A stretch of DNA of 64,000 bases from an uncultured Planctomycetales bacterium (GTDB lineage: Bacteria > Omnitrophota > Gorgyraeia > Gygaellales > Profunditerraquicolaceae): positions 4,084 to 68,083 of the forward strand of contig CAYHBB010000016.1 in assembly GCA_964354795.1 (NCBI GenBank). The letters run 5' to 3'. The notes beneath the pieces were generated by a model. It was not told where the DNA came from, did not search any database, and saw nothing but the letters and a program-made list of their open reading frames with translations. This document shows, piece by piece, positions 6,434 to 64,000 of the stretch. Position 1 is the stretch's first letter. Every line of letters starts with the position of its first letter. The translations under genes were made by a program, and so were the position numbers.

Positions 6434-6436
6434 TGC

Positions 6437-19126: not shown

Positions 19127-19145
19127 TTTCATCCTCCTTTTCAAA

Positions 19146-19363: not shown

Positions 19364-20005
19364 CTAATATTGATTATAATTAAAGCCTCGCCCTTCTTCC
19401 AAGCATACAGGGATACCCAACTTTTCTATCGCTTGAACAATCTTTTCGTCTTTTGGCTTATATATTTCTTCCATTCCTTCTTTCATCCAGGAATGAAATT
19501 CGACATATAACTTATCAATATATTTAATGCTCCCGTCTTTCAACATTTGATCAAGTATCGGATATTCAGCCGCTTCTATGTCCATTTTTACATAAATAAT
19601 ATCTTCCTTCTTAAAGTCTCTCTCCAACCATTTGCCAAAATCAATAGATTCAACATGTACTGGCACCTTCTTCTTATCTGAACCTAGGGCGTTCACGACA
19701 TTCCCACCTAAATCATTAATTCCAAAGTAAAAATTTACTCCTTTATCATCAATCCACATTGCCTTATTAATCACTGTCACATTTGGCTTCTTCGGTATAA
19801 AACGAATCAACTCAGGATTAGCTTCAAAAGCAAATATCTCCCATTGATATTTTGAATACAAATTACTTTTTTCGAATGCTTCAATACTATCTCCCTTATA
19901 AGCTCCCCCATCTATAAATATATGCCTCCTGCCGGGCACGCAGCCATAAATTATTATTGTTAATAGAAATATTATAAATATTTTCACGAATATTCGATTT
20001 CTCAT
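19364..20005 (-). CDS. FkbM-family methyltransferase-like protein with N-terminal TM/signal
   Basis: Start at MRNRIFVKIFIIFLL... (the track's MIEYITEGF comes from the promoter repeat). DGGAYKGDSIEAF...FAFEANP resembles the FkbM methyltransferase motif. Confidence 0.4.
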   Translation of the reverse strand: MRNRIFVKIFIIFLLTIIIYGCVPGRRHIFIDGGAYKGDSIEAFEKSNLYSKYQWEIFAFEANPELIRFIPKKPNVTVINKAMWIDDKGVNFYFGINDLGGNVVNALGSDKKKVPVHVESIDFGKWLERDFKKEDIIYVKMDIEAAEYPILDQMLKDGSIKYIDKLYVEFHSWMKEGMEEIYKPKDEKIVQAIEKLGIPVCLEEGRGFNYNQY

Positions 20006-31855: not shown

Positions 31856-32848
31856 TTACCACTTAACCTGCCTCAAAAACTCCGCCGACTCTTCGGGGAG
31901 CGCGGTATTAATAAACATGCCGCTTCCTAACTCAAATCCCGCCGGCTGCGTGACCCTGGGAATGATGCTGATATACCAGTGAAAATATTCCGTGCCCCGC
32001 TCTTTTACCGGGATGGAGCGGATATTAAAATTGTAGTCCGGATTATCCAGGCCATAATAAAGTTTCTGCAGGACGGTCTGAAGATTTACCGCTAGGTCCT
32101 TTATCTCATCATCGTTTATATGCGCGAAATACGCCGTGTGCCTGCGCGGAAATAACCAGGTGGTAAACGGCGACGGCCCGGCAAAAGGCATAAACGCCAC
32201 AAATTTATCTGTTTCAAAAATAATACGCTTCTTAGTTTTCAGCTCCTCTTCCATCGTCTTACAAAATACGCATTGACCAGTCATATCAAAATAATGTACA
32301 GCTTTTTCCACGCGGCCCCTCATCTGCGGCGGCACGATCGGTGTGGCGATCATCTGCGAATGCGAGTGCTCGATGGAGGTCCCGGCCATGGCCCCATGGT
32401 TCTTGAAGATGGTTATCGCCTCGATCCCTTCGACGCGAGTCATGGCGGTATATCGCAGCTTGTACATGCGGATGATGTCCTCGACTTCCTCTTTTCTCAT
32501 CAAAGGGATGATCATGTTGTGCAGCGGATGCTCGATCAGGACCTCGGAGACGCCGAAACCTCCCATCGATAAATAGATGCTATCCAAATTCCTCAGGCGC
32601 GGGGTGTTCGGGGAAAACGCTCCGAACAGGTTGGTCACCGAACGCACCTTCCAGCTCTTTTCGTCTCCTAAGCGGTATATCTCGCCAGGTGTCTTAACTT
32701 CGTTGCCGGGACAAAAAGGGCAATCCGCCCTGTACTCAGGCAGGGACTTCTTCTCTCTTACCTTGACAAATTCCTCCGGCCGCTTAGCGCGCTCAGTCGC
32801 CATCACCACCCACTCTCCGGAAACCAGATTATAGCGTAATTCTGACAT
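31856..32848 (-). CDS. galT: galactose-1-phosphate uridylyltransferase (HIT family)
   Basis: Zn site CPFCPGNE and HSHSQ (HxHxQ). Confidence 0.7.
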   Translation of the reverse strand: MSELRYNLVSGEWVVMATERAKRPEEFVKVREKKSLPEYRADCPFCPGNEVKTPGEIYRLGDEKSWKVRSVTNLFGAFSPNTPRLRNLDSIYLSMGGFGVSEVLIEHPLHNMIIPLMRKEEVEDIIRMYKLRYTAMTRVEGIEAITIFKNHGAMAGTSIEHSHSQMIATPIVPPQMRGRVEKAVHYFDMTGQCVFCKTMEEELKTKKRIIFETDKFVAFMPFAGPSPFTTWLFPRRHTAYFAHINDDEIKDLAVNLQTVLQKLYYGLDNPDYNFNIRSIPVKERGTEYFHWYISIIPRVTQPAGFELGSGMFINTALPEESAEFLRQVKW

Positions 32849-38878: not shown

Positions 38879-40918
38879 TTAAGGTAATTTCCAAATCAAC
38901 TGCTTGTATTCATCAAGCATCCGGTAGGTGTTGAAATGCGCGCTTGCCACGATGCAGCTGATCATGTAATCTATCCATGGTGAAGTAAGATCGACTTCAT
39001 TCTTACTACCATGCACAGTTTTATAATAAAGACCGACCAGCTCCTCAAGGGCCTGATACAACGCAACGGAATCCTCCTGCATGTGCAAATCCATTTCGTT
39101 TCCGATCTTACCCTCGCCGTTTTTATAACCGAAGATCATGCCTATGCCCTTATCCGCCGCCTCCACCACCCAACCGTCGAGAGTGGACAGCTGCACCACG
39201 CCGTTTAAAAGCGCCTTCATCCCACTGGTGCCGGAAGCCTCAAAAGGCGGCAAAGGATTGTTCAGCCAGACATCCACACCGCTGGTCAGAGCCTTTCCAA
39301 AATACATATCGTAATTCTCCAGGATCACAATCTTTAAATAATCATAGGCATTAGACAGCCCGTCCACCTTATCCATCATCTCATTGACAAAGGTTGACCC
39401 CAGGTTGTCGTTAGGATGAGCCTTGCCGGCGAGGATCAGCTGTATAGGACCGGTAATTTTAGCGATCCCTATCAGCCTTTGCACATCATAGAGCACAAGG
39501 CTCGGCCGCTTGTAGGCAGCGATCCTGCGCGCCCAGCAAACGGTAAAGGCGTCTTTTTTAAGGGACCATTTCTCAAGCAGGCCGCAAAGCCCGGACTTGC
39601 TTTCCTGATGCGCCTGCCAAACAGCCTTGCGAAAACCCTCATCGCTCCTTAACTCCTCAGCTTTGGCCAGGATCATGGGATTATCTTCGAAATTTTTGAA
39701 AACCGCAGGAAAGCTCTTATACACCTGCATGAAAGGCTCAGAGATCCAGGTATAAGGATGCACTCCGTTAGTCACATATTGAATCTGCTCTTTATATTTA
39801 GGAAATTGCAGGTGCATCACCATCTGATGGTTCTTGGAGACCGCATTTATGGCGCTGCTTGAGTTCATGGCTAAAAGCGTAAGGTTCACTACGCCTGCCC
39901 GGTCTTTACCCAAACGCTGAGCCAACAAAAAATCGCTCTCGGGGAGGATATTGCGCAATTCCTCCGATGGAAAACGGTCGTGCCCTGCCTCTACCGGCGT
40001 ATGGCAAGTATAGACAAAATGCTTTTTCAGATTTTCGACCTCCGCCTCAGACATACCGCGGGATTTCTCAATAAAAGCGAACGCCGCATGCCCTTCGTTC
40101 AAATGGAACGTGTCAATATCATGCCCTAGCTCTTTAATAGCCGCGATACCGCCATAGCCCAAGATTATTCTCTGCATAGCTTTAAGCCAATTGTTATCGC
40201 TACGATAAAGCTGATCGGTAAGTCTGCGAACATCCTCTCTGTTTGGCTCCACATCGGCATCCAAAAGGATCAATGGTATAACGTAATCGTGCTTATAGCT
40301 ATAGACGTAATATTTCCATAATCTTAAAAATATTGTCTCCTGCTTAAGAGAAATCTTTATGATGTTCTTAAGCGGGATCAGCCCGGGGTAGCTTTTGGGG
40401 TCCCACTTCATCTTCTCCGGCACCTGGCCATGCTTGAACCAGAACCGCTGGCGAAAATACCCCGAACGCCAGAGTATCCCCACTGCCAATGCCGGCAGCT
40501 TGTAATCAGCCATGGTCTTAACCGTATCTCCGGCTAAAACCCCCAAACCTCCGCTATATATAGGTAAATCAATAAGGCTATCCACCTTGACGTCAAAGAA
40601 ATAATCCGCCAGGCGGTAGTTGGAAAACACAGTGTTTTCGGGGATCTTATTGTCGGGGTTCAGCGGACGCACAGAAGTAAAAGTGTTGTAAAAGCTCGGG
40701 GCCAACCCGTACTCCATGGAAAAATAACCTAGGCGCCGGGCTGCCTGGTCTTTAAGCTTATTCTCCGCGCGGATGATGGAAGCGATGGGCATGCCGAAAT
40801 AATTATCGGCGGTGATATCCTGGGCGTAATTCTCCCCAAACCCCTCCACCTGATTCAAAGCGAGGAATTCAGCCAGGTAATCAATATTCTGCGTCTGTTT
40901 ATCCACTGTTGATTCCAT
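38879..40918 (-). CDS. glgP: alpha-glucan phosphorylase (GT35, short glgP-type)
   Basis: GGLGVLAGD motif and PLP-lysine region EASGTSGMK. Confidence 0.85.
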   Translation of the reverse strand: MESTVDKQTQNIDYLAEFLALNQVEGFGENYAQDITADNYFGMPIASIIRAENKLKDQAARRLGYFSMEYGLAPSFYNTFTSVRPLNPDNKIPENTVFSNYRLADYFFDVKVDSLIDLPIYSGGLGVLAGDTVKTMADYKLPALAVGILWRSGYFRQRFWFKHGQVPEKMKWDPKSYPGLIPLKNIIKISLKQETIFLRLWKYYVYSYKHDYVIPLILLDADVEPNREDVRRLTDQLYRSDNNWLKAMQRIILGYGGIAAIKELGHDIDTFHLNEGHAAFAFIEKSRGMSEAEVENLKKHFVYTCHTPVEAGHDRFPSEELRNILPESDFLLAQRLGKDRAGVVNLTLLAMNSSSAINAVSKNHQMVMHLQFPKYKEQIQYVTNGVHPYTWISEPFMQVYKSFPAVFKNFEDNPMILAKAEELRSDEGFRKAVWQAHQESKSGLCGLLEKWSLKKDAFTVCWARRIAAYKRPSLVLYDVQRLIGIAKITGPIQLILAGKAHPNDNLGSTFVNEMMDKVDGLSNAYDYLKIVILENYDMYFGKALTSGVDVWLNNPLPPFEASGTSGMKALLNGVVQLSTLDGWVVEAADKGIGMIFGYKNGEGKIGNEMDLHMQEDSVALYQALEELVGLYYKTVHGSKNEVDLTSPWIDYMISCIVASAHFNTYRMLDEYKQLIWKLP

Positions 40919-42040: not shown

Positions 42041-43632
42041 TATACCGCTTTTATGATCATTATGGTTATATCGTCAAACTGGGGCTGCTTACCGACAAAC
42101 TTCTTAAGATCATCCTCAATTCTATGCATCAGCTGATCAGCCGATAAATGGCGGTTATCCTTGACTATTTCCCCAAGTCTATCGACATTAAATTGTTCTC
42201 TTTTATCGTTAATCGCCTCAGTCACTCCGTCAGTGTAAAGTATCACCAGATCTCCCGGCTTAAGAGTGAGCTCTTCCGTTGTCGCCTCAATATCCTGGGT
42301 TATGCCCAAAGGCATAGTCTGGGCCTTTAGCAGCACTATATCATTGCTGGCTGCAGAGACCAGAAGCGGCGGATTATGCCCGGCGTTGGCATATTTAAAA
42401 GTTTTAGTCTCAGCGTCAAGTACAGCATAAAAAAGCGTGACGAACATGTTCGCCTTTGAGTCCTGGCAGATAAGGTTATTGGCGTGATTAATAGCCTTAT
42501 CCGGAGAGGTGGTCACGGTTGCGCTTGCGCGCATCAAAGCCCGGGAAAGCGCCATAAAGAGTGCTGAAGGAATGCCTTTGCCCGAGACATCGGCTATGGC
42601 CAGGCCCCAGGTATTTTTATCTATAGGTATGAAATCGTAGAAATCCCCGCCCACCATGCGCGCCGGCAGGGTCATCGCCGCGATATCGATACCGGCCATC
42701 TTAGGATATGAGTCAGGAAGGAAACTCCGCTGGATCTCCTGGGCGATCTCGATCTCGCGCACCAGACGCTCTTTTTCCGCGGTTGTACGCTTAAGCTCCT
42801 CGATATGCAGCTTTAAATCCTCGGACATCGAATTAAAAACGCAAGCAAGCTGGGCCAACTCATCTGCCCCTTTTACAACCACCTTGCAGTCAAGGTCTCC
42901 CTTTCCGAAATGCTGGACCCCCTTCATTAATTCCCTCACCTGCCGGGTTACCCCTCCGGAGATAAAGAACCCGAGCAGTATAGCCGCCAGTATCTTGATC
43001 AGAAAAAAAAGCCGCATCCTTTGGCGCACTACCGTCTGCACACCGCGCACATCCTCGGCCGTCATATCCACTCCCAGCACGGCGACAACAGCGCCGTCGC
43101 GGCTGCGGACAGGAGCGTAGCCGGAAAGAAACACGCCCCACTGATCCGCCCCCATTTCCTTATCCGCGGAAGCTTTCTCAAAGCCCTCTAGCATTTCCGG
43201 GAAACGCGTTGCGTCATACTCATCCCCGGGATACGCAATCGCGGTTTCGCTCTGTTTTTCTTCAGTGCTGTCATTTACCACAAACTGCAGGATCCCAGGC
43301 TTAGCGGTTTTTGCAAGAATGTAAATGTATCTTATACCAGGGACCTTGTGTTTTATTTCCAAAAGCTTTCCGACGACATCCTTATATACCGGGGCTTGTG
43401 CCCCTTCTTTATTAAGAGGTATGCTTTGCAGGCTTGAGCCGTCGATAGAAACAGCCGCGGTCTGGGCGATGCTCTCAAGCTTTGAGCGCAGCTGCTCGAA
43501 CTGCGAGCGAAGCGCGTAATTAGTCACCAGGATGTTCGTTGCGGTGCCGGCTGCCACCATTGTCAGCACGAAAAAAAACATTATCTTAAACCGCAAGCTC
43601 CTGAATAAAAAGAACGGCTTCTTCACTTTCAC
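42040..43632 (-). CDS. membrane sensor with HAMP and PP2C (SpoIIE/RsbU-type) serine phosphatase domains
   Basis: N-terminal TM, periplasmic segment, second TM + HAMP; PP2C motifs (GGDFYDF, DVSGKGIPSALFMA, DGVTE). Confidence 0.75.
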   Translation of the reverse strand: MKVKKPFFLFRSLRFKIMFFFVLTMVAAGTATNILVTNYALRSQFEQLRSKLESIAQTAAVSIDGSSLQSIPLNKEGAQAPVYKDVVGKLLEIKHKVPGIRYIYILAKTAKPGILQFVVNDSTEEKQSETAIAYPGDEYDATRFPEMLEGFEKASADKEMGADQWGVFLSGYAPVRSRDGAVVAVLGVDMTAEDVRGVQTVVRQRMRLFFLIKILAAILLGFFISGGVTRQVRELMKGVQHFGKGDLDCKVVVKGADELAQLACVFNSMSEDLKLHIEELKRTTAEKERLVREIEIAQEIQRSFLPDSYPKMAGIDIAAMTLPARMVGGDFYDFIPIDKNTWGLAIADVSGKGIPSALFMALSRALMRASATVTTSPDKAINHANNLICQDSKANMFVTLFYAVLDAETKTFKYANAGHNPPLLVSAASNDIVLLKAQTMPLGITQDIEATTEELTLKPGDLVILYTDGVTEAINDKREQFNVDRLGEIVKDNRHLSADQLMHRIEDDLKKFVGKQPQFDDITIMIIKAV

Positions 43633-44180
43633 CGGCCGGCCCCCTTATCCGTTTCCGAAACAAAAAGTACGACGATCGTAAAACGCCCCTCCAAAGCCTG
43701 ATTTCCCGGGCGCAGGCTCAATTGGAACTTTTTTATCTTCAAAAGAGTTAGGCTGTTTTCCAGCTTGTAGATAAAAGCGAAAAACCCTTTTACTTCTCCC
43801 TCAGCCCTTAATTCGATAAGCGCTTCTTTGTGCTGACCGCTCGACTTCACCTGCGGGTCCGGACGTATATCGATTATGCGGATATTGGATTGTTGCGCCA
43901 GGAGCTCTATCGCGGAAAGCCCGGATAATAACGGATCATCCTGATCGGAAGTATTACCGGAAGAGCCACCTGCCGCGTATTTAGCCATTAGAAAATCTTT
44001 CTGAGAAAGAAGCCAGGAGTATTTTACCAGCTTCATTCGGGTAAGAGCGATTTCCTTGTTAAGCCGGCTGATCCTGGCGAACAATGGCACGAGCAGAAAA
44101 TTAAAGGTCAGGGCGAAAACGATCAGTCCTGCGGTAAGATAAAAAATAGTTTTTTCCCTGCCCGTAAAGATTTTAAGCAT
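43629..44180 (-). CDS. PilO/GspM-like pilus/secretion assembly protein
   Basis: Single N-terminal TM + periplasmic domain. Position in the operon after the PilM/N-like gene. Confidence 0.4.
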   Translation of the reverse strand: MLKIFTGREKTIFYLTAGLIVFALTFNFLLVPLFARISRLNKEIALTRMKLVKYSWLLSQKDFLMAKYAAGGSSGNTSDQDDPLLSGLSAIELLAQQSNIRIIDIRPDPQVKSSGQHKEALIELRAEGEVKGFFAFIYKLENSLTLLKIKKFQLSLRPGNQALEGRFTIVVLFVSETDKGAGR

Positions 44181-45563
44181 TTATTTCCTCGAAGCCATTA
44201 TTTCAAAACTTATGGACTCGCCAGCGCTGGTATTTTTCTTGGTGGCATAGCGCACCTTGAAGCTGAATTTTCTGAATACGCTTGAGCCTTCCAACTGCGA
44301 GACCAGCGAAAGCACGGAATTAAGCTGCTGGGCCTGGCCTCGTAAAGTCAACTCTCTTCCCGCTTCATAAATAAAATCAGTCAAAAGTACCTGTGGCGGG
44401 ATGATACGGTAGACTTCGGAGAACCCCTCGGGATTTCCCGGCTTTTCCGCAGAAGTTCCCGCGGCGATAGAAAGCCTCTTCTCAATATCTTTAAGCGGTT
44501 TTACCTCAACAGAAATACTGTCCAACCGGGCTTTAAGCTTAAACAGATAGCGCTCCTTATTATCTAGGCTCTTGAGTACTCCCAGGCCAAAAATAATCAC
44601 GGCGGCAGATACCATAATCGCGAATCTGGAGTATTCCAGGCGCTTCAATCCCCTCTTGCTTTGCTCTTTCAGCCCCTTCGGCATCAGGTTCAGGGAATAC
44701 GCCACATCCTCTAACCCTAAGCCGATCAATGCCGCAAATGACACATCGGCATCCGATTTCTTGCAAGCAATGACCTGTGCCTTAAATCCCGCATATCCAT
44801 CCAGCGCTTGAGCGAAATCCCGGGCTGATATCTCCTGGCCGGTGACGAATATATTTTCCGGAGCCTTAAATCCGGTTTCCTTAGCGTAAGCATCCCGGCT
44901 CTTTGCCACCTCATCAATGAATACACTATGCGAATCCACGCCGGCATTTACCTTAAAATACCGGCTAAAAAGTAATTTGCCCTGCGCCACGATCACCAGT
45001 TCCATGTGCGAAGCGTCAATATCCACGATTATTGAAGGAGTTTTTAACTGCGGCTGCGACCAACTAAGAAATTTCGCCAAGCCGTAAGAAGTCAATGCGA
45101 CGCAAGCCTGCGGGATAAACGCGTCCTTTGAGATATTGATATAGCGACTGATCACATCCCTGTGCGCGATCACCAGCGTTATAGCGGAGTATCCGTCTTT
45201 ATCAGTAGAAACCACCTCGTAGCCGGTGACTAGCTCTTCCTGCGGATAAGGAAGATAGCGCGAGGCCTGTAAAGATACGATGCTCTCTAATTCCTGAGCG
45301 GAGTGTGCGGGAACGGAAAGGTACCTGCAAGTGACTTTGCTGCGGGGTATAGCCACAACCACCGGATGGTTGTGGTATCCCAGCGAGACAAGTTGCTGCC
45401 GGAGCCTTGCGGCTATCTCCTTGTCATCGGCCTGCGGCGAGAGTTCCTGCGCCAGAAAGTCAGTGCTTTCGCGCTTCGATTTGCCGACAGACTGAAACTT
45501 GACCACCTTAAGATACGTTTCGGTGATCTGACAGATAAAGACTGTATTCATACGATTCATCAT
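44181..45563 (-). CDS. PilM-like actin-fold protein fused to PilN-like TM/periplasmic region
   Basis: N-terminal about 330 aa actin-like ATPase fold pattern. Hydrophobic helix (AIMVSAAVIIFGLGVL) then a coiled periplasmic tail. Start chosen at MMNRMN; track uses GTG further upstream. Confidence 0.5.
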   Translation of the reverse strand: MMNRMNTVFICQITETYLKVVKFQSVGKSKRESTDFLAQELSPQADDKEIAARLRQQLVSLGYHNHPVVVAIPRSKVTCRYLSVPAHSAQELESIVSLQASRYLPYPQEELVTGYEVVSTDKDGYSAITLVIAHRDVISRYINISKDAFIPQACVALTSYGLAKFLSWSQPQLKTPSIIVDIDASHMELVIVAQGKLLFSRYFKVNAGVDSHSVFIDEVAKSRDAYAKETGFKAPENIFVTGQEISARDFAQALDGYAGFKAQVIACKKSDADVSFAALIGLGLEDVAYSLNLMPKGLKEQSKRGLKRLEYSRFAIMVSAAVIIFGLGVLKSLDNKERYLFKLKARLDSISVEVKPLKDIEKRLSIAAGTSAEKPGNPEGFSEVYRIIPPQVLLTDFIYEAGRELTLRGQAQQLNSVLSLVSQLEGSSVFRKFSFKVRYATKKNTSAGESISFEIMASRK

Positions 45564-45588
45564 ACTATAGCCACCATGATTTTCAAGC

Positions 45589-46512
45589 CTAGTTTTCATG
45601 CCAAAAAACCACCTTGGACTTAGAGCGGTCATACACTGCTTCAACACTCCTTACCACCCTGTTGACGCGGTCCAAAGCTTTTATACGGATAAAATCCGAC
45701 TTCACCCCGATTATATTATTCACAACAGCCTGCTGCAGGATCTCCAGCTCCTTATCGTTTAAATCAAGCTCGCCTGAGATCAGCGCGGTATCGCGAAACA
45801 CCCGATCATCCGCGGAGCCGGTGACATTATCGGGGCCGCTACGCCAACTGACTATTTTTTGCACGAGGCTCTCGGCATCAGCCGCAGTCACACCGCTGAC
45901 CCCGTTATTGCTAAGGAAAACGGCCTGCGAATGCATGATCATGGTCAGCACCTCCTGCGAAACGGTATTAATATTTGTCTTCTTGGCGAAAACGGTGACA
46001 TAATCCCTTACTTTCCTATAGTCTTCTGCCGTCAAATCCTTTATCATTACCAACTCTTCGGCAGCAGCGAAGTCCGCGCCCTTTGGGCTATAGCCCAGGC
46101 TCTCATAAACCTTCGCGCTATCCTGGGCATCGCCGCGCCAAATAAGCAGGTTATTCACGAGGTCAGTAGTTACAGGCACCCCGGACTCCTCGAAAAGCGC
46201 GGTAAGTAGCACGGAAGGAGCCTCGTTTAAATTCAAGAGCCGGTCTTCGTCGGAAATCTTATAAAGCGCGGGCTCCCCGGGGTTCATCCACTCCTCTAGC
46301 CTAGAATCATACCCGACGCTGGTATCCGCCAATATCCTGGAGATCGCCAGGTTCACCTGCGCCTTAGCCTGATAAAGCGCCTGCAGGCTGTCGCGCTCAT
46401 AACGGCTCATCCTTAAAGACATGGCCACGCGGTGCCCGATGCCCACGGCCATAACCGCCAAGATCGCCAGGACCCAAAGGCTGATGATCAGCGCCTGCGC
46501 TTTTTTATTCAT
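45589..46512 (-). CDS. GspK-like minor pseudopilin
   Basis: Start at MNKKAQALIISLWVLAILAVMAV; about 310 aa, no Glu+5. Confidence 0.5.
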   Translation of the reverse strand: MNKKAQALIISLWVLAILAVMAVGIGHRVAMSLRMSRYERDSLQALYQAKAQVNLAISRILADTSVGYDSRLEEWMNPGEPALYKISDEDRLLNLNEAPSVLLTALFEESGVPVTTDLVNNLLIWRGDAQDSAKVYESLGYSPKGADFAAAEELVMIKDLTAEDYRKVRDYVTVFAKKTNINTVSQEVLTMIMHSQAVFLSNNGVSGVTAADAESLVQKIVSWRSGPDNVTGSADDRVFRDTALISGELDLNDKELEILQQAVVNNIIGVKSDFIRIKALDRVNRVVRSVEAVYDRSKSKVVFWHEN

Positions 46513-47107
46513 TTTCCTGCGGCGCGGACGACGGCACGCTGACAAAATAAACAGTCCGCTCAAAATCATAAGTAAATTTTTTCTTCAACGATAGTTTTAC
46601 TTTAACCGCTGCCGGAAGTTTCTTGGCGAAACCCCAGGCAACGGCCTCCTTTAAAGCGCCATTATCTTCATATATATAGGAAAAAATCAGCTTATCTATA
46701 TCAGGGTCCATCTCATCTGCCTTAACCCGAGAAGAATCTTTCAGGCACTCCTGACCCCTGCGGCATAAGCGCATCAGCGTATTACCTTCTAGATAGTAGC
46801 TGACAAACGCCACATTGCGGACAAATTCCAGCAAACTGTAATCATCCACTAACGCCATAAAGCTGACCTTATCGGCGGTACCGCTGAACTTAGTATCGCC
46901 GGAAGAATAGGCGTAGCTGTTGCGAATATCGCGGTTAATACGCCCCAAAACCTGGCGCGCCTGCTGATAGGCCGAGACACGCTCATTGATATTTCGGTAA
47001 CCGAAAACTCCGGAGCTAAAGGCCGCATATAGCGCCACCATTACTACCGCGAATATGGATGAGGCGATCAAAAGCTCTACTAGAGTAAAAGACTTGGACT
47101 TTTTCAT
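46505..47107 (-). CDS. GspJ-like minor pseudopilin
   Basis: Prepilin N-terminus MKKSKSFTLVELLIASSIFAVVM (Ser at -1, Glu+5). Confidence 0.5.
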   Translation of the reverse strand: MKKSKSFTLVELLIASSIFAVVMVALYAAFSSGVFGYRNINERVSAYQQARQVLGRINRDIRNSYAYSSGDTKFSGTADKVSFMALVDDYSLLEFVRNVAFVSYYLEGNTLMRLCRRGQECLKDSSRVKADEMDPDIDKLIFSYIYEDNGALKEAVAWGFAKKLPAAVKVKLSLKKKFTYDFERTVYFVSVPSSAPQENE

Positions 47108-47478
47108 TTTCGAAAATACGTCTGGACGCCGAAGCTCTCCTGCCAAGATTTCGTCTTCCATTTCAGTTCCATATCCATTACGTACAGCCCGACTCCGGGG
47201 TCAAGCTTAAACGTGCGCTTCCAACTGAATTTATCCCGCGCCCCTTCGGACTCTTCGGGCTCATTTGAGATTATAGAATTCGCCTCTTTATATTCCAGCT
47301 CCTGCAGTTTGTCCTCAGCCAGAAATACCGCGCTGACCACATCGCAGGATAATCCCGCAGCCCTGGTACTGAACACTATAGCCTCCATGACCACCACAAT
47401 GCCCGCCGATAATATGGCGATGGCAATGATCATCTCCAGCAAAAATATACCTTTATTACTGTTCTTGAGATTTAACAC
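47104..47478 (-). CDS. GspI-like minor pseudopilin
   Basis: KGIFLLEMIIAIAILSAGIVVV prepilin N-terminus. Confidence 0.5.
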   Translation of the reverse strand: MLNLKNSNKGIFLLEMIIAIAILSAGIVVVMEAIVFSTRAAGLSCDVVSAVFLAEDKLQELEYKEANSIISNEPEESEGARDKFSWKRTFKLDPGVGLYVMDMELKWKTKSWQESFGVQTYFRK

Positions 47479-47899
47479 CTGCGAAAACTCCTTTTGTAGT
47501 AAGAGTAACGGAATGCCCTTCGGAAGAGGTGAGCTTTATGGTGCAGGGATCTATGCTGCCGTCAGGATAGAAGATTATCTGACTTTGGTCTGTTTCGATA
47601 GTTATAGAAGAGGGAATATTGTATGACCTTATCCGGATACTGCTGTCTTTAAACTTAGCCCAGTAAGCCTTGCCTTCGGGGTCTATATGAAGGTAAACGC
47701 TTGTCCCTTCGGCTACCGCGCGGCCATCCAGATAATTCATAAATGTCTGCAATTGACGGCAGCTGTCATCAAGCTGCAGACTGACAAAGGTCCTGCGCAA
47801 AGCAGGATATGACACTCCCGCCAAAATACCGATGATGATGATGACAAAAAGAAGCTCAAGCAGGCTAAACCCCGTTAGATGCTTACGCTTCTTACGCAT
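47456..47899 (-). CDS. GspH-like minor pseudopilin
   Basis: MRKKRKHLTGFSLLELLFVIIIIGILAGV. Confidence 0.55.
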   Translation of the reverse strand: MRKKRKHLTGFSLLELLFVIIIIGILAGVSYPALRRTFVSLQLDDSCRQLQTFMNYLDGRAVAEGTSVYLHIDPEGKAYWAKFKDSSIRIRSYNIPSSITIETDQSQIIFYPDGSIDPCTIKLTSSEGHSVTLTTKGVFAGVKSQEQ

Positions 47900-47927
47900 T
47901 AACGCCTCTAACGGGGCAAGTGAGCGC

Positions 47928-48326
47928 TTACCAGTTGCCGATGTCGTCATTATCCCCCTGCGTGCCGTTAGGCCCGGAAGAGTAAAGGTCATAGTCGGTA
48001 TTGTGAGTCCCGGGGCAGATATAGATATACTCCTTGCCCCACGGATCCTTGGAAGCTTTCTTTAAATACGGGCCTTTCCAGGTGTCAGGGTTAGAGCCCT
48101 TCTGCATCAGCTCATCAAGAGTAGCCGGATAATGGCCCATATGCATCTCAAACATATCCAGCCCTAATGCAATGTTCGAGTTGATATCGGCTTTAGCAGC
48201 GGAAATCCGCGCCTCTTCGGAGCGGCCCACAAGCCTGGGCATGACCATGGCCGCAAGCACGCCGATAATAATCACCACTAACATAAGCTCGATCAAAGTA
48301 AAAGCTTTTCTACGTGACTTGACCAT
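47928..48326 (-). CDS. gspG: major pseudopilin (GspG-like)
   Basis: MVKSRRKAFTLIELMLVVIIIGVLAAMVMPRL; note Ala rather than Gly at -1. Confidence 0.75.
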   Translation of the reverse strand: MVKSRRKAFTLIELMLVVIIIGVLAAMVMPRLVGRSEEARISAAKADINSNIALGLDMFEMHMGHYPATLDELMQKGSNPDTWKGPYLKKASKDPWGKEYIYICPGTHNTDYDLYSSGPNGTQGDNDDIGNW

Positions 48327-48334
48327 TCTTCCTC

Positions 48335-49543
48335 CTATCTTACAATCAGATTAATCTGAAATATCGGCAATAACATTGACAGGACAATAAAACAGACTAT
48401 CAGGCCCATCAGCAGTATTATAACCGGTTCGATCAAACGCGCAACTGTCTTTAAGTTGCGCTCGACCTCTGACTCGTAATCCTGGGCGACTCTGAAAAAC
48501 GCTTTTTCAAGCGAACCCGTCTCCTCCCCAACGGAGATGATGTTCACCGAAAACTGGGGGAAAAATTTCGAGCCCTTCATGGCCTGAGATAACATAGATC
48601 CTGAGGCTATAGCGCCTTTAAACTTTTCCGCCTCCTGGCGCAGAATATAGTTGGAAAATGTTGAATTCGCTACTTCCAACGCCGGGGTGATAGGCATTCC
48701 GCCGGCTACCAGCAAAGACAGCGTGCGCATAAACCTGCCGATCTCGGCCTTTACAATGATATTGCCCAATAGCGGCAGCTTAAGCCTGAAAGTGTCTAAA
48801 GCTATTCGCCCCTGCGGATTCTGCTTCATGCGCTGCAGAAAAAATATTATAAAGAAAATAACGACCGGAAAAACCCACCAGAAACTGCGCATTAAGCCTG
48901 ACACGGCGATCAGGATCTTGGTAGGCAGCGGCAACACCTGTCCCATATCGGAAAACATGCTCACTAGGCGGGGGATGACAAATGCAAGAAGCACGATTAT
49001 GGTCAAAACGCTTACCGAGAATATAAATGCCGGATAGATCATTGCCTGGCGCAAAGAGTCCCGGAACTCCTCCTCTTTCTCAAGGTAGCCACTTAAACGC
49101 CGCAAAGCCTCTTCGATATTCCCGCTTGCCTCTCCCGAGCGCACCATGGAAGTATAAAGCGCGGGGAAAACTTGCGGGTACATGGAAAGCCCGTCTGAAA
49201 AAGCCTTGCCACCCTTGACCTGATCGGCGACATCCAATAATACCGCCTTAAGATACTTGTTCGGCAGCTGCTCGATAACGATGCCAATGGCTTTTAAGAT
49301 GTGTACGCCGGAGCCGACAAGCGCGGACAGCTGCGTAGTGCACAGGACCAGCTCTGAAGTCTTGAATTTTGAGAAAGCCCAGCCGCTTTTTTTATCCAGC
49401 GGGCTTTCTTTGGGATGGACAGAAACGGGGAAATATCCCAAGCCGGTGATCTTCGAAATGGCGTCCTGAGCGGAATCCGCCTCAATATCTCCCCGGATGG
49501 TTTTGGATGGATCAGTCTTGGCTGTATAGGCGTATCGCGTCAT
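48335..49543 (-). CDS. gspF: type II secretion / type IV pilus inner-membrane platform protein (GspF/PilC)
   Basis: 402 aa, duplicated cytoplasmic domain + 3 TM pattern of the GspF family. Confidence 0.8.
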   Translation of the reverse strand: MTRYAYTAKTDPSKTIRGDIEADSAQDAISKITGLGYFPVSVHPKESPLDKKSGWAFSKFKTSELVLCTTQLSALVGSGVHILKAIGIVIEQLPNKYLKAVLLDVADQVKGGKAFSDGLSMYPQVFPALYTSMVRSGEASGNIEEALRRLSGYLEKEEEFRDSLRQAMIYPAFIFSVSVLTIIVLLAFVIPRLVSMFSDMGQVLPLPTKILIAVSGLMRSFWWVFPVVIFFIIFFLQRMKQNPQGRIALDTFRLKLPLLGNIIVKAEIGRFMRTLSLLVAGGMPITPALEVANSTFSNYILRQEAEKFKGAIASGSMLSQAMKGSKFFPQFSVNIISVGEETGSLEKAFFRVAQDYESEVERNLKTVARLIEPVIILLMGLIVCFIVLSMLLPIFQINLIVR

Positions 49544-51261
49544 CAGTCCTCGGACAGCTCTTCCTGTTGCGTCACGCGCACCACTTCAGAAAACGTAGTC
49601 AGCCCGGCCAGCACCTTGCGTAAGCCATCCTGGCGCAGGGTGCGCATCCCCTCAGAGATCGCCTGACGCTTGATCTGCTGGCTGGAGGAACGGCTTAAGA
49701 TCAGTTCTCGGATCTTCTCGCTCATCAGGATGATTTCATGGATCCCGGTCCTGCCGCGATAGCCGGTGAACCTACACTCCTGGCAACCCTTACCTTCATA
49801 TATCTGAGTGGTCTTGATATCGAAATCTATATCCTTATGCATCTGGGCCAGGAACTCTTCCCCGGCCTTTACCACGGTTTTGCATTTAAGGCAGATCAGC
49901 CTGACTAGCCTTTGCGCGATAAGGCATTCCAGCGATGAGGAAACCAAAAACGGCTCTACCCCCATATCCAGCAAGCGGGTCACTGCTCCCGCCGCATCAT
50001 TGGTGTGCAGGGTCGAGAATACCAAGTGGCCCGTAAGAGAGGACCTGATGGCTATCTCCGCAGTCTCATAGTCGCGTACCTCTCCCACCATGATCACGTC
50101 CGGGTCATGCCTAAGCATGTGCCTGAGCGCCGTGGCGAAGTTAAACCCTATCTGCGCGTTTACCTGTATCTGGTTTACCCCGCGCAGCTGATATTCAACA
50201 GGATCTTCGATAGTGATGATCTTTACCGCGTTTGAATTGATACGGGCCAATGCCGCATACAGCGTTGTAGACTTTCCGGAGCCGGTAGGCCCGGTTACGA
50301 AAATAACCCCATGCGGCCGGGTGATAACGCCCTCAATAATCTTAAGCTCATCCGCAACAAGCCCGATCTTCTCAAGCTCTAAAAACGACCCCTGACTCAA
50401 CACCCTTATCTGCACCGCCTCCCCAAAAACGGTGGGGATCACCGACACGCGCAGGTCCAGCTCATAATCCACGACCTTGATCTTTATGCGCCCGTCCTGC
50501 GGAAGCCTGCGCTCGGCGATATTCATGCCGGCCATGATCTTTATGCGCGAGACGATCGCGGGATGAAAATATTTTATTGTTTCCGGGATATGAATATCAT
50601 AAAGAATACCATCGATCCTGAAACGCACGCGCAGCTCATCCTGAAACGGCTCCAGATGCAAGTCAGTAGCCCTGTCCTTGATCGCCTCCTGCAAAATCTG
50701 ATTTACGAACTTTATGATAGAGGCGTCTTCCGCCATACCCTCCAGATCCTCGACCTTTCCGGCTACCGAAACTAAAGACTCCTGCGCCGGCTTCTCGGCG
50801 ATCATACGCTCCAGGGTCTCCGCACCCACGCCGTAATACTTGCGTATCGCCTCCTGAATACCGATCTCGCTTGCCAATACCCCCTTCACCTCAATACCCA
50901 AAAGCAGGCGAAGATCATCCAGAGTCCGGATATCCAGCGGGTCTGTCATAGCAATGACCAAAACGTTGTCCTTGAAATCAACGGGAATGATCTTGTAGTG
51001 GCTGGCGAACTTTGCGGGGACTTTCTGGATTATCAAACTATCAATATCAGTATCCTTAAGTTTTATATAAGGAATCTCCAGTTTGCGGGCAAGGACGGTT
51101 AAAGCCTTTTCTTCGCTGATAAACCCAAGCTTTATCAACGCCTGGCAGACAAAACTTCCGGTCTTTTTCTGCTCTTTTAGTCCGGCCTCTAGCTGCTCAG
51201 AGGTGATCAATCCCTCCTCAACCAGCAGCTGCCCGATCAGCAAACTATCTCTCACCGACAT
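49543..51261 (-). CDS. gspE: type II secretion / type IV pilus assembly ATPase (GspE/PilB)
   Basis: Walker A GPTGSGKST, N-terminal T2SSE_N-like domain, tetracysteine CLKCK...CQEC. Confidence 0.85.
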   Translation of the reverse strand: MSVRDSLLIGQLLVEEGLITSEQLEAGLKEQKKTGSFVCQALIKLGFISEEKALTVLARKLEIPYIKLKDTDIDSLIIQKVPAKFASHYKIIPVDFKDNVLVIAMTDPLDIRTLDDLRLLLGIEVKGVLASEIGIQEAIRKYYGVGAETLERMIAEKPAQESLVSVAGKVEDLEGMAEDASIIKFVNQILQEAIKDRATDLHLEPFQDELRVRFRIDGILYDIHIPETIKYFHPAIVSRIKIMAGMNIAERRLPQDGRIKIKVVDYELDLRVSVIPTVFGEAVQIRVLSQGSFLELEKIGLVADELKIIEGVITRPHGVIFVTGPTGSGKSTTLYAALARINSNAVKIITIEDPVEYQLRGVNQIQVNAQIGFNFATALRHMLRHDPDVIMVGEVRDYETAEIAIRSSLTGHLVFSTLHTNDAAGAVTRLLDMGVEPFLVSSSLECLIAQRLVRLICLKCKTVVKAGEEFLAQMHKDIDFDIKTTQIYEGKGCQECRFTGYRGRTGIHEIILMSEKIRELILSRSSSQQIKRQAISEGMRTLRQDGLRKVLAGLTTFSEVVRVTQQEELSED

Positions 51262-59530: not shown

Positions 59531-59552
<22 letters not shown>

Positions 59553-60154
59553 AACAACACTCTCCTTATTTCATCTACCTGTTTCTTTGTTTGCGCTAAA
59601 CTACCGTCATTATCTATTACAAAATCCGCAATGGATATCTTTTTCTTAAGTTTGATTTGTGAGTTTATGCGTTTTAATATACCGGCTCTATCTAGTGAAC
59701 ACCTCCTTTGGAGCCTTTTTACCTGGTTGATTTGATTAGCCGTAACCACCACAACTTTATCTACTTGCCTTTGCAGCCCTGCCTCGATCAAAAGCGGCGC
59801 ATCCAGGACTACCAATCCGGATTTAGCGGCCCTGACCCTACGCCTGATCTCACGGATCACCTCAGGATGGATGATGCTGTTTAATTTAAGCAGCCTGCGG
59901 TGGTCGTCAAAGACCACCTCCCCCAGGCGCCTGCGATCAATTGTCTTATTTACGCAGAGTACGCCTTTGCCGAATATAGAAATTATTTTTTTGTACGCCG
60001 CGCTCCCCGGACGCAGGCACTCATGAGCCAGAGAATCTGCGTCAATAACGCAGGCACCACTTTTCTTAAAGATTCCGGCGACAGTACTTTTGCCGCTGCC
60101 GAAACTTCCGGTGATTCCGATTACAACCTTAAATCTTCGCTTTTGCCTTGGCAT
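59531..60154 (-). CDS. coaE: dephospho-CoA kinase
   Basis: [19 protein letters not shown]-loop at N-terminus, about 200 aa. Confidence 0.8.
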
Positions 60155-60273: not shown

Positions 60274-63200
60274 CTACTTACCAATTTTTTTGACCCGCAA
60301 TATATGGGCGGGCGTTACGGCAGGATCGAGTTCGACATAGTTCCACTCGCCCTTCCAAGCAAAAGTCTTTTTGCTTAATAAATCCTCGACTTCATAATAG
60401 TCATCGGCCGACAAGCCGAGGTCTTCTAACGGCACGCTTACCAGGCCCGCATGCGTATTGTGCGGGTCGACATTCACAACAGTCAAGATCACATTTGACA
60501 GATCCTCGGTGGCCTTCACGTAAGAAAGCATGTTTGGGTTATTCGTTTCCCTGACGCTTATATTGTTTGTCTCCTGAAGCGCCGGGTTCTCCTTCCTGAT
60601 CTTGTTTATAAGGGTGATTTCTTTCTTGATATTGCCCGCAGCGTTCAGATCCCAATCTTTCAGTTCGTACTTTTCGTTGTTTGCATACTCTTCTTTCCCC
60701 GGATAGGGCTCGTTCTGGCATGTTATATAAGCACCCCCGTATATCCCGTAATTCGAAGAAATGGTCCCGGCAAGGACGAGCCGTATGATAAAAGCGCTCC
60801 TGCCGCCTTTCTGCAGGTACTCATGCAGGATATCGGGAGTATTCGGCCAGAAATTCGGCCTGAAAAACTCGGCGGAGGCGGTCTTCGTCAGGTCATTGAT
60901 ATATTCGGCAAGCTCATTCTTTGTATTTCTCCAGGTAAAGTAAGTGTATGACTGTGAAAAACCGATTTTGGCAAGCATGTTCATCATCTTAGGCCTGGTG
61001 AACGCCTCGGCAAGAAAGAGCGCGTCCGGGTATTCTTTTTTCACCTCAGCTATCACCCATTCCCAGAAGGCGATCGGTTTTGTGTGGGGATTATCCACCC
61101 TGAATATCCTCACCCCCCTTTCCGCCCAGAAAATAAAGATGGATTTTAGCTCTTCCCACAGCTCCTTCCAGTTGTCCGTCCTGAAATTAAAAGGCACGAT
61201 ATCTTCATATTTCTTCGGGGGATTTTCAGCGTATTGGATAGTCTTGTCCGGCCTCCATAAGAACCACTCAGGGTGCTCTTTGATATACGGGTGGTCATTT
61301 GAACACTGGAAAGCGATATCAAGGGCTATTTCCATCCCGTATTTTTCGGCCTTGGCGACCAGTGAGGCAAAGTCATCAAACGTACCCAGCTGGGGATGTA
61401 TTGCCTTATGCCCGCCCACTTTTGCTCCCACTGCCCAGGGGCTGCCCGGATCTAGAGCTGCCGCTTTGAGAGAATTATTCCTCCCCTTCCTGTTCCCGGC
61501 CCCTATGGGATGGATGGGCGGCAAATATAGGACATCAAAGCCCATACCCGCGATTTCCGGGATCAGCTTTTCGCAATCTTTAAAGGTCCCGTGCCTGCCG
61601 GAGGAGCCCGAAGTTGAACGGGGGAAGATCTCATACCAGGTGCTAAACATTGCCCTGTTCCTCTCCACTTTCACTTCGAGTTCGTTGTGATATTGCGCGA
61701 TAAGGGCCTTTTCGGGATATTTTTTCATGACCTCAAGGAGTTCAGTGCTTAGGGCTGCCTTTATCCCATCCTTGCCCTTATGCTTGATTTTTTCAATATA
61801 CCCGGACAATTTTTTTCTGTCTTTATCTTGCGCCCTTGCCAGCGTTTCTTCTATGAGGGAAACGCCTATTAAAAGGTCTACGGCAACATCCTGACTTACT
61901 GCGATCTTTTTCTCAAGGTCATTCTGCCATGTCTTAAAATGGTCGATCCAGGAGCGTATCGTATAAAAGTAGGTTCCTTCTTTCTCGATCTTAAAATCCC
62001 CGAACCATTCGTCGTTATATTTTAGGGTTAGTTCAATTTCTTGCCAAGTTTTATCCGAAGCGTGGCAATAATATAGATATGCCGCCTTCTCATCGTGCCC
62101 GTCTGAAATAATATGGGCTTTTACATTCACGCGCTGCCCGGGCACTCTTTTTATCGGATATTTTCCATTGTCCACCTCAGGCAGGACCTTTTCAATAGTC
62201 ACCCGCTGCTTGCCTAAGATATCCGCCGCGCTCTTTTTCTCAATAAGGTGCTTATAAAAATCAAGTGTCTCTTCGGCAATGCTTTTCCAGCTGAAAAATT
62301 CCACTACCCGCTGCCTGGATCTGAGCCCCATGCTTTTGAGTTTATCGGGGGAGTCTATGATCGAATTGATGGCGAAAGCCAGGTCCTGCGAGAATTTTTC
62401 CGGCTCAACTGGCTCAAAGTCATTCGCGCCTTTGGGTTTGATCGGCACCAGAAACCCTGTCTCACCAGGGACTACGACTTCAGGGATACCTCCCACTTTT
62501 GTCGCGACTACCGGGGTCTCGCATGCCATTGCTTCGATATTGATCATACCGAAAGGCTCGTAAACCGAGGGGCATACAAAAAGCGCTGCCTGCGAATAAA
62601 GCGCTATTGTATCTTCCCTGGAGACCATCTCCTCTATCCATATGACTTTATTTTTTGTTTCCTTTCTGACTTTGCTGACCCTGACTTTCATCTCCTCGGC
62701 AATTTCTTTGGTGTCGGGTGCCCCCGCGCATAAAACCACCTGATGCCCCGCCTTGATGTGCTTAATGGCGTTGACCAGATGGATGATCCCTTTTTGCCTG
62801 GCGATCCTACCGACAAAAAGTATATACGGGATCTTCGGGTCTATTTTATATTTATCAAGGACCGCCTTGTCCCTGACCGGCTTGTAAAGGTTTAAGTCAA
62901 TGCCGTTATAAATCACTCTGATCCTGTCAGAAGGCACGCCATATAGGTCCCTGACATCTTTTCTCATTGCCTTGGAGACCGCTATGACGCCGTCAGCGTT
63001 TTGATAAGCGGTCTTTTCAATCCAGGAACTCGCGTTATAGGCGGTGCCGAGCTGCTCGAATTTCCACGGCCGGTGCGGCTCCAGGGAATGGGTCGTCAGG
63101 ACAAGGGGGACGTTTAGCAGCTGTTTTATCAGCATACCCGCGAAATGGCTGTACCAGGTGTGGCAATGCACTATATCGACACCGTCAAGCTGGCCTGAAA

Positions 63201-63453
63201 TGATGATGTCTTTGAGCATGGCGTCCAGGAACTTCTTGTGCCGCTCGTCCTTGACCGGGAAATCATACTGGGCGTTGACTCCCTCCACGCTTAAGTTGCC
63301 CCTCGCAGCCTTCTGGTTTCCAAAACAAAAGACTTTAACCGTGTGCGCGCCGTTATCCAGCTTGGAAAGTTCGCGGGTCAGATGTTCAACATGAACACCG
63401 GCGCCGCCATATATATTCGGAGGGTATTCGTTTGTCAGGATGGCTATTTTCAT
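60274..63453 (-). CDS. fusion protein: N-terminal GT4 glycosyltransferase (GlgM-like maltose-1-phosphate synthase) + C-terminal GlgE alpha-1,4-glucan:maltose-1-phosphate maltosyltransferase
   Basis: Start at MKIAILTNEYPPNIYGGAGVHVEHL (GT4 N-terminus). GT4 C-terminal PVVATKVGGIPEVV. After a linker: GlgE-type DUF3416 region (PGQRVNVKAHIISDGHD...) and catalytic core (STWYEIFPRS, GFDVLYLPPIHPIG, GH13 motifs). Single 1059-aa ORF. Confidence 0.7.
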   Translation of the reverse strand: MKIAILTNEYPPNIYGGAGVHVEHLTRELSKLDNGAHTVKVFCFGNQKAARGNLSVEGVNAQYDFPVKDERHKKFLDAMLKDIIISGQLDGVDIVHCHTWYSHFAGMLIKQLLNVPLVLTTHSLEPHRPWKFEQLGTAYNASSWIEKTAYQNADGVIAVSKAMRKDVRDLYGVPSDRIRVIYNGIDLNLYKPVRDKAVLDKYKIDPKIPYILFVGRIARQKGIIHLVNAIKHIKAGHQVVLCAGAPDTKEIAEEMKVRVSKVRKETKNKVIWIEEMVSREDTIALYSQAALFVCPSVYEPFGMINIEAMACETPVVATKVGGIPEVVVPGETGFLVPIKPKGANDFEPVEPEKFSQDLAFAINSIIDSPDKLKSMGLRSRQRVVEFFSWKSIAEETLDFYKHLIEKKSAADILGKQRVTIEKVLPEVDNGKYPIKRVPGQRVNVKAHIISDGHDEKAAYLYYCHASDKTWQEIELTLKYNDEWFGDFKIEKEGTYFYTIRSWIDHFKTWQNDLEKKIAVSQDVAVDLLIGVSLIEETLARAQDKDRKKLSGYIEKIKHKGKDGIKAALSTELLEVMKKYPEKALIAQYHNELEVKVERNRAMFSTWYEIFPRSTSGSSGRHGTFKDCEKLIPEIAGMGFDVLYLPPIHPIGAGNRKGRNNSLKAAALDPGSPWAVGAKVGGHKAIHPQLGTFDDFASLVAKAEKYGMEIALDIAFQCSNDHPYIKEHPEWFLWRPDKTIQYAENPPKKYEDIVPFNFRTDNWKELWEELKSIFIFWAERGVRIFRVDNPHTKPIAFWEWVIAEVKKEYPDALFLAEAFTRPKMMNMLAKIGFSQSYTYFTWRNTKNELAEYINDLTKTASAEFFRPNFWPNTPDILHEYLQKGGRSAFIIRLVLAGTISSNYGIYGGAYITCQNEPYPGKEEYANNEKYELKDWDLNAAGNIKKEITLINKIRKENPALQETNNISVRETNNPNMLSYVKATEDLSNVILTVVNVDPHNTHAGLVSVPLEDLGLSADDYYEVEDLLSKKTFAWKGEWNYVELDPAVTPAHILRVKKIGK

Positions 63454-63475
63454 CTTCTTCTTGGCATCGCGATCT

Positions 63476-64000
63476 TCATGCCGGCTCCATTTCCAGCCAG
63501 TTGTCCCCGGCCTTGACATCCACCTTTACTGGGACATCCAGCTTAAGCACGTTCTCCATGCGCTCTCTGACCAGCGCGGTCAGCTCCTCGAGCTCCGCTT
63601 TCTCAACGTCAAAAAGCAGCTCATCATGTATCTGCAGGATCATTTTTGACTTGAGCTTTCTGACTTTAAACTCTTTATGTATATCGATCATCGCCAACTT
63701 TATCAGGTCAGAGGCTGAGCCCTGTATCGGAGTATTTACTGCCTGCCTTTCGGCAAACTGGCGCAGCATCATATTCTTGCTGAGGATCTCCGGGACATAC
63801 CTGCGCCGGCCCATGATAGTGGTGACAAACCCATCGTTTTTCGCCCGCTCGATTTGGCCATCAATATAATCTTTAACTTGCGGATAGGTAACGAAATAAG
63901 CATCAATAAACCCCTGTGCTTCCTCTAATCCGATGCCTAAATCCCGGCTTAAACCGTAGGAAGTAAGGCCATAGACTATCCCGAAATTCACTCTCTTAGC
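63476..64000 (-). CDS. polA: DNA polymerase I, C-terminal part (gene start beyond window end)
   Basis: Family-A polymerase motifs (VNTPIQGSASDLIKLAM, LQIHDELLFD); frame open to position 64000. Confidence 0.85.
   Translation of the reverse strand, partial: AKRVNFGIVYGLTSYGLSRDLGIGLEEAQGFIDAYFVTYPQVKDYIDGQIERAKNDGFVTTIMGRRRYVPEILSKNMMLRQFAERQAVNTPIQGSASDLIKLAMIDIHKEFKVRKLKSKMILQIHDELLFDVEKAELEELTALVRERMENVLKLDVPVKVDVKAGDNWLEMEPA

Follow-up and report, generated by a model that had tools for sequence, protein, structure and literature searches.

We analysed a 64,000-nucleotide stretch of DNA (contig CAYHBB010000016.1; hereafter, the window) from an uncultivated Candidatus Omnitrophota bacterium. 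On its minus strand, at 60274..63453, lies a gene in which the coding sequences of two consecutive enzymes of alpha-glucan synthesis, the maltose-1-phosphate (M1P) synthase GlgM and the maltosyltransferase GlgE, are joined in one reading frame. The fusion is genuine and not an assembly artefact. It is rare and apparently undescribed; both enzymes themselves come from well-known families. Judging from the sequence, the gene very probably encodes a genuine bifunctional GlgM-GlgE enzyme, predicted to be made as one chain.

Architecture of the fused gene

Counted from its first ATG, the single minus-strand open reading frame (ORF) runs over 60274..63519 and encodes 1081 amino acids in the ORF listing, while the ATG at 63451-63453 (start MKIAILTNEYPP) gives 1059 codons followed by the stop at 60274-60276. 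The latter start is likely the right one, because the homologues and the solved GlgM all begin there with an equivalent MK(I/V)A motif, because the ATG at 63519 falls within the 3' end of polA (stop at 63476-63478), and because the L001 copy of the gene is without the upstream extension. Between the GlgM and GlgE halves, the window ORF holds no stop and no frame change. The complete gene is further supported by Pfam and NCBIfam matches and by full-length copies that are 95-97% identical (P0001 and L007). The original prediction had given the same coordinates and the 1059-residue length correctly, leaving the strand unstated, and the motifs it quoted are all found in the ORF; moreover, Pfam matched all the domains it had proposed to look for, namely the GT4, GlgE N/S and alpha-amylase domains.

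The GlgM half comprises residues 1-404 (62242..63453, minus strand), as delimited by the TIGR02149 model, the alignment to Mycobacterium smegmatis GlgM (6TVP) and the donor-site residues. Pfam places Glyco_transf_4 at residues 15-188 (1.5e-36) and Glycos_transf_1 at 201-339 (1.7e-30). The NCBIfam model TIGR02149, named for a 'Corynebacterium-type GlgA' family that we take to be equivalent to GlgM, matched residues 1-403 over model positions 1-390/391 with 491.8 bits, against a curated cutoff of 302.4, and every other glycosyltransferase model of this kind, among them sucrose-phosphate synthase, MshA, BshA and GT5 GlgA, stayed far below its own cutoff on this half. The structure 6TVP aligned with it from end to end (330 bits, E=2e-97, 47% identity), the next solved structures being the sucrose-phosphate synthase 6KIH (125 bits) and MshA (92 bits). 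These matches bear out the earlier assignment of the GT4 half as GlgM-like rather than as a sucrose- or trehalose-phosphate synthase.

The ADP-glucose site of M. smegmatis GlgM is formed by H109, V146, N171, R207, K212, E289, G292 and I293 (PMC7137382). Seven of the eight are identical in the fusion (H122, V159, N183, R216, K221, E299 and G302, in the order of the first seven), and I293 is replaced by M303, a conservative Ile-to-Met change. The literature separates GlgM from GlgA by co-occurrence with GlgE; here, the GlgM half is covalently fused to it.

The GlgE half begins with domains N and S (residues 416-598; 61660..62208, minus), which match the full PF11896 GlgE_dom_N_S model (positions 1-179, 4.9e-51). 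It continues, according to the alignment with Streptomyces coelicolor GlgEI (4U2Y), into a catalytic (beta/alpha)8 region with GH13_3-type A/B domains (residues 599-967; 60553..61659, minus), and ends in a C-terminal beta-sandwich domain (residues 968-1059; 60277..60552, minus) recognised by PF21702 GLGE_C at 968-1054 (1.4e-27). With the Alpha-amylase match (PF00128) at 609-763 (5.2e-8), the N/S, A/B and C domains follow one another in the expected order. Residues 416-1059 aligned end-to-end with 4U2Y (E=7.5e-176, 47% identity), covering its residues 20-661. Together with the PF11896 and PF21702 matches, this upholds the earlier identification of the C-terminal half as a GlgE-type maltosyltransferase.

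In S. coelicolor GlgEI, D394 and E423 are catalytic, Q324 and N352 belong to the M1P site, and H397, W448 and R449 to the acceptor site (PMC7805345). In the fusion, the nucleophile D394 corresponds to D787 (61093-61095) and the acid/base E423 to E816 (61006-61008), whereas Q716 and N744 occupy the M1P site and H790, W841 and R842 the acceptor site, all of them identical to GlgEI. D480, presumably the third catalytic carboxylate as in other GH13 enzymes, is conserved as D874 (60832-60834), and so are K355, Y357 and R392, which we assume to belong to the phosphate site (K355 and Y357 being K747 and Y749 in the fusion).

The two halves are connected by a linker of about 11 residues (residues 405-415, EKKSAADILGK; 62209..62241, minus), which was delimited by comparing the junction with those of the unfused gene pairs L004, L005 and L011. 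The stretch that spans the junction reads ...LIEKKSAADILGKQR..., and the part predicted with the lowest confidence by AlphaFold2 (residues 408-418) overlaps the linker.

Distribution and origin of the fusion

To place the fusion, we used a protein search that covered 5.8 billion clusters at 90% identity. Full-length matches were found in nine clusters, which stem from JGI, ENA, NCBI and Logan assemblies and form two clades: clade A, to which the window belongs (P0001-P0005; 79-97% identity to the window, 1059-1081 amino acids), and clade B (P0007-P0010; 49-51% identity, 1068-1075 amino acids). A profile search of the cluster database added no further fusions beyond these nine clusters, and the taxon of every named fusion is Candidatus Omnitrophota. 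By phmmer, no full-length GlgM-GlgE protein was listed among 1.84 billion 50%-identity representatives, where the fusion clusters were apparently absorbed under shorter representatives, so that this library cannot count fusions.

The uninterrupted ORF, with its linker conserved, is present in at least nine independent assemblies at 79-97% identity. A stop or frameshift between the domains, which the original prediction had named as the observation that would speak against a fusion, is absent from the window and from the independent assemblies P0001-P0005, L007, L008 and L009/L001, which derive from different samples and projects. Three species-representative genomes (L007, L008 and L009) carry the uninterrupted ORF; among them, L007, an Omnitrophota metagenome-assembled genome (MAG) from Lake Pavin sediment, has a 95% identical copy and is syntenic with the window over polA-fusion-coaE-rho-prfA. 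Against these three genomes, the ratio of nonsynonymous to synonymous divergence (dN/dS, Nei-Gojobori) is 0.10-0.15 in the GlgM half and 0.10-0.17 in the GlgE half, with dS reaching ~0.8. Both halves, and the open frame across their junction, are therefore maintained by selection.

The alternative that the fusion results from an error of assembly, sequencing or gene calling, such as a lost stop codon or a chimeric contig, deserves attention, given that MAG data are error-prone and that some database 'fusions' are artefacts: P0015 and P0032, which we examined as further fusions, contain high-GC, Arg/Pro-rich stretches and were judged to be frameshifted merges of adjacent genes. However, an error would not be expected to recur with the same architecture and a conserved linker in at least nine independent assemblies, one copy of which is syntenic, nor to leave dN/dS well below 1 on either side of the junction at such synonymous divergence. 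Moreover, the sole annotation error that we found goes the opposite way, a continuous ORF having been called truncated. This explanation is refuted for practical purposes, and we give it almost no weight.

The annotation error in question concerns P0006, from two NCBI Omnitrophota MAGs (85% identity), which was considered as a stand-alone GlgE or a recent fission and rejected, since an unbroken ORF of 1055 codons spans its locus and is 86% identical across both halves. In L001 (6483-9650) and L002 (GCA_018822885.1 and GCA_018824265.1), NCBI calls a 681-residue GlgE from the internal Met375, so that 1.1 kb of GlgM coding sequence, although intact, goes unannotated; this call is an annotation error that hides the fusion. 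The database names of the fused proteins are single-function ones, and pipelines mislabel or truncate the fused gene, as 'glycogen synthase', as 'starch synthase (maltosyl-transferring)' or as the 681-residue GlgE.

Between the Omnitrophota MAG L009 (6475-9646) and the window (60290-63461), nucleotide homology of 84% begins 8 nt before the ATG and stops at the gene end, with no relationship between the flanking sequences. Through rearrangement or transfer, the fusion gene therefore stands in differing contexts in related genomes.

In unfused relatives, glgM lies directly upstream of glgE on the same strand, at gaps of 20-75 nt, the two genes being separated by a stop and, in most cases, by a shift of frame as well. 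Such pairs were found in L004 and L005 (taxon not given), in Goldiibacteriota (L011, L058 and L059), Anaerolineae (L022 and L071), Chloroflexia (L010) and Endomicrobiales (L042), and also in a member of the Syntrophobacteraceae (L062), with a gap of 736 nt. All of these are two genes parted by a stop, in contrast to the one chain of the window. The nearest pairs (L004, L005 and L011/L059) share the gene order and orientation of the window, are 68-72% (GlgM) and 64-67% (GlgE) identical to it, and form the sister group of clade A. In L011, one in-frame stop alone parts glgM from glgE ('...KNGKKK(stop)FMEGKKRVVIEKV...'), which places this pair a single substitution away from a fusion. The window junction, '...FYKHLIEKK-SAADIL-GKQRVTIEKV...', joins the former GlgM tail to the former GlgE N-terminus through six new residues. 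The gene probably arose by loss of the stop codon and short spacer between adjacent glgM and glgE genes, the ~11-residue linker being derived from the old termini.

We then built neighbour-joining trees of each half separately, with 200 bootstraps. Clade A groups with the unfused Goldiibacteriota/L004/L005 pairs in both the GlgM tree (99.5%) and the GlgE tree (100%). Clade B forms a monophyletic group of its own (100%), with unfused Chthoniobacterales glgM as the sister of its GlgM half (100%). The proteins of clade B (P0007-P0010; L003, GCA_043808175.1) have the same GlgM-GlgE order and conserved active sites as the window, whereas, beyond their low identity to it, their linker is unrelated and consists of ~35 poorly conserved residues. 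Because of these tree placements and unrelated linkers, two independent fusions within the Omnitrophota are the likely history, much more parsimonious than one fusion followed by several fissions, which is the less probable reading of these neighbour-joining trees.

Predicted function and alternative explanations

GlgM converts ADP-glucose and glucose-1-phosphate into M1P and ADP, and GlgE transfers the maltosyl unit of M1P to a glucan, which is lengthened by two residues with release of inorganic phosphate (PMC11046441). If the fusion has both activities and uses ADP-glucose, as its sequence leads us to infer, it would carry out both steps from ADP-glucose and glucose-1-phosphate through M1P to alpha-1,4-glucan on one polypeptide. 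The benefit probably lies in an obligate 1:1 co-production of the M1P maker and consumer and in their proximity, by which free M1P would be kept low. In mycobacteria, M1P builds to toxic levels once GlgE is compromised (PMC7805345). Two independent fusion events argue for a selective advantage.

Several points weigh against a bifunctional enzyme of this kind. The vast majority of organisms with both genes keep glgM and glgE separate, so the advantage of fusing them is not general. The AlphaFold2 prediction, made from a 13-sequence alignment, the deepest to be had for fused sequences, reached a mean pLDDT (predicted local distance difference test) of 65 and a pTM (predicted template modelling score) of 0.45, too poor a model for judging the inter-domain geometry or the facing of the active sites. 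The quaternary structure of a fused chain is a further difficulty, as GlgE is reportedly a homodimer in the S. coelicolor structure papers. GlgM is one too (PMC7137382). Because each parent enzyme is homodimeric, the fusion might, speculatively, form higher-order assemblies. The acceptor site of GlgM is structurally undefined even in the solved enzyme, so that specificity for glucose-1-phosphate cannot be checked residue by residue (PMC7137382). Finally, when every ORF of 150 or more amino acids was scanned with Pfam and the window was searched by tblastn, no glgC, glgB, treS or mak was found in the 64 kb, nor any other glg gene, which bears on ADP-glucose supply and on branching. The supplements of an Ace Lake study (PMC8542988) give GlgC and GlgB for most of its Omnitrophota MAGs, which makes ADP-glucose supply in this phylum plausible.

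A stronger form of the same explanation is true substrate channelling, in which M1P made at the GlgM site would reach the GlgE site before it could equilibrate with the cytosol. The very short linker, the two independent origins, the toxicity of M1P and the pathway precedent of a fusion of the other M1P-forming pair, TreS-Mak, are in favour of it. On the other hand, the long and poorly conserved linker of clade B looks more like a flexible tether than a fixed tunnel, the AlphaFold2 inter-domain geometry is unreliable, and simple co-localisation and stoichiometry account for the same data. We consider channelling plausible, though rather unlikely, and are equally tentative about the wider proposal that the protein acts as a self-contained alpha-glucan synthase, channels M1P and emerged by convergence on at least two occasions as a way to avoid maltose-1-phosphate poisoning.

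The halves themselves could also be read differently. The GT4 half might be an ADP-glucose-dependent glycogen synthase or primer synthase (a GT4 'GlgA'), in which case the protein would combine two alpha-1,4 polymerases; TIGR02149 is named 'glycogen synthase', NCBI labels P0010 likewise, and mycobacterial GlgM retains a weak glycogen-synthase activity. However, GlgM from both M. tuberculosis and M. smegmatis is an M1P synthase that works ~1000-fold better with glucose-1-phosphate than with glycogen, the literature takes every GT4 'GlgA' protein found together with GlgE to be a GlgM, and fusion or adjacency to GlgE with no TreS-Mak nearby is the pattern expected of an M1P supplier, which makes two polymerases an improbable combination. 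It is less probable still that one half has decayed and serves, without catalysis, as a scaffold or regulator only, as might be supposed from the Chlamydiae, where the GlgB half of a GlgA-GlgB fusion is apparently inactive. Across 11 aligned fused proteins, drawn from the two fusion clades, all the donor-site, catalytic and substrate-site positions that we checked are invariant, and, bar the one conservative donor-site change, they are those of the known enzymes; dN/dS is equally low in both halves, and both match active enzymes over their full length. This suggests that neither half is a decayed module.

The bifunctional GlgM-GlgE enzyme would most closely resemble the GlgC-GlgM-GlgE pathway of mycobacteria and streptomycetes (Rv1212c GlgM and Rv1327c GlgE; 6TVP, 4U2Y/3ZSS and 4U33), with which it agrees in enzyme families, order of reactions and active-site residues, each half being 47% identical to a characterised enzyme. 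There, GlgM and GlgE are separate polypeptides encoded at separate loci, whereas the window joins them in one chain in an Omnitrophota bacterium. The original prediction had set the fusion against separate enzymes in actinobacteria; they are indeed separate there, but the contrast is too narrow, as separate adjacent glgM-glgE pairs are widespread in other phyla. A 2024 survey in Chemical Reviews describes GlgM as mostly actinobacterial and the other GlgE-pathway bacteria as using TreS-Mak only. Linked glgM-glgE pairs in at least five further phyla show that the GlgM route extends beyond the actinobacteria.

Other fusions in glucan synthesis offer a comparison. The TreS-Mak (TreS-Pep2) fusion of Estrella lausannensis and Pseudomonas aeruginosa likewise joins consecutive GlgE-pathway enzymes and is biochemically bifunctional, but it involves other enzyme families and two M1P-producing steps, whereas the window joins the producer of M1P to its consumer. 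In Waddliaceae and Criblamydiaceae, GlgA is fused to GlgB, both of the classical pathway; besides the apparent inactivity of the GlgB half, the genes of that pathway are described as being at differing stages of loss, unlike the intact halves under purifying selection in the window. No description of a GlgM-GlgE fusion was found in the searchable literature, which omits most subscription journals, and this absence is not proof. That consecutive enzymes of a pathway become fused is common in evolution.

The GlgE pathway has been validated as an anti-tubercular target, as blocking GlgE leads to a toxic build-up of maltose-1-phosphate. A natural coupling of M1P synthesis and consumption would be independent evolutionary evidence that control of free M1P matters beyond mycobacteria. 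If channelling and convergence hold true, it would be the first natural physical coupling of the producer and the consumer of toxic M1P, and would give a handle on the undefined GlgM acceptor site and on safe flux through the GlgE pathway. The fusion is also a ready-made construct for channelling tests and for structures of GlgM:GlgE assemblies, and could be put to use as a compact module that makes alpha-glucan in two steps from ADP-glucose and glucose-1-phosphate.

Genomic surroundings and further observations

The fusion is not within a glg operon. It lies among minus-strand housekeeping genes, with polA upstream and coaE, rho, prfA, prmC, aroA and trpGDCF downstream. The 3' end of polA (63476..63991, minus; PF00476 DNA_pol_A, 2.1e-68) is directly upstream, its stop 22 nt before the fusion ATG and in the same order in L007, and the two genes are probably co-transcribed. 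Downstream, coaE (59531..60154, minus; PF01121, 2.1e-49) is given for context only.

The original prediction had named an alpha-glucan phosphorylase as the degradative side of the pathway. The gene is real, an alpha-glucan family phosphorylase (GT35) at 38879..40918 on the minus strand (TIGR02094, 397.5 bits against a cutoff of 191.7; PF00343), but its degradative link is one of co-occurrence within 64 kb only, as it lies 20 kb from the fusion and shares no operon with it. It is possibly the degradative partner and a source of glucose-1-phosphate. A GalT/HIT-family gene (31856-32848, minus), for a hexose-1-phosphate nucleotidyltransferase, was considered as an ADP-glucose-forming enzyme and rejected; it passes the ordinary galT model TIGR00209 (112.8 bits against a cutoff of 102.1), and no evidence links it to glucan metabolism.

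In the loci that we fetched, glgE without glgM is flanked by maltokinase and TreS/GlgB-type genes. In the window and at glgM-linked glgE loci, L062 excepted, no TreS-Mak genes occur within 10 kb, which fits GlgM being the M1P supplier there.

Fused or tightly coupled glucan enzymes are recurrent in these candidate phyla in the Ace Lake tables (PMC8542988). Its supplements (files 3 and 4) include a 'GH57 + glycogen synthase (GlgA)' fusion in the presumed Omnitrophota table and, in the presumed Cloacimonadota table, GlgM and GlgE as separate genes that overlap.

Other arrangements of the two enzymes were seen in our searches. Four proteins of ~710-820 amino acids (P0051, P0053, P0054 and P0070) combine a maltokinase-like N-half (PF01636) with a GlgM C-half, so that a single chain would cover both known routes to M1P; the N-half of P0051 is 30-35% identical to the mak genes that adjoin glgE in many loci. 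GlgM proteins of ~675 amino acids (P0016-P0028, e.g., P0020) are extended at the N-terminus by ~280 residues, for which the precomputed listing shows no Pfam domain, and some of these proteins are on contigs of 3.2-3.7 Mb that are probably complete genomes.

GlgE, for its part, seems prone to N-terminal fusions. Among P0122-P0148, many GlgE proteins of 1000-1150 amino acids have other N-halves, such as GH57+DUF3536 (P0122) or amylase/hDGE-like sequences (P0123 and P0124), and P0126, P0127, P0129, P0133, P0134 and P0148 have ~360-450 N-terminal residues with no Pfam match. In the nine N-terminally extended GlgE proteins tested by Pfam, a GT4 half was absent from all nine.

Elsewhere in the window, three regions stand apart. 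At 705-12743 (minus), four radical-SAM ORFs (one with SPASM) accompany an S8 subtilase, a GAF protein and a caspase-domain protein, an assemblage that resembles a peptide-maturation system, akin to those for ribosomally synthesised and post-translationally modified peptides, or a protease-linked one. The GC content of ~12000-20000 is 0.37-0.41, compared with 0.45-0.50 elsewhere, and this region may be an acquired island; it holds a full-length serpin (17927-19174; PF00079, 1.7e-122), an FkbM methyltransferase and several ORFs without a Pfam match. Lastly, a type II secretion/type IV pilus-like cluster occupies 43629-51261 (minus), with a T2SSE ATPase bearing MshEN, T2SSF, a pseudopilin with an N-methylation motif, a T2SSK-like protein and a PilM/PilN fusion, and is adjoined by a HAMP-SpoIIE phosphatase and a bestrophin-like protein.

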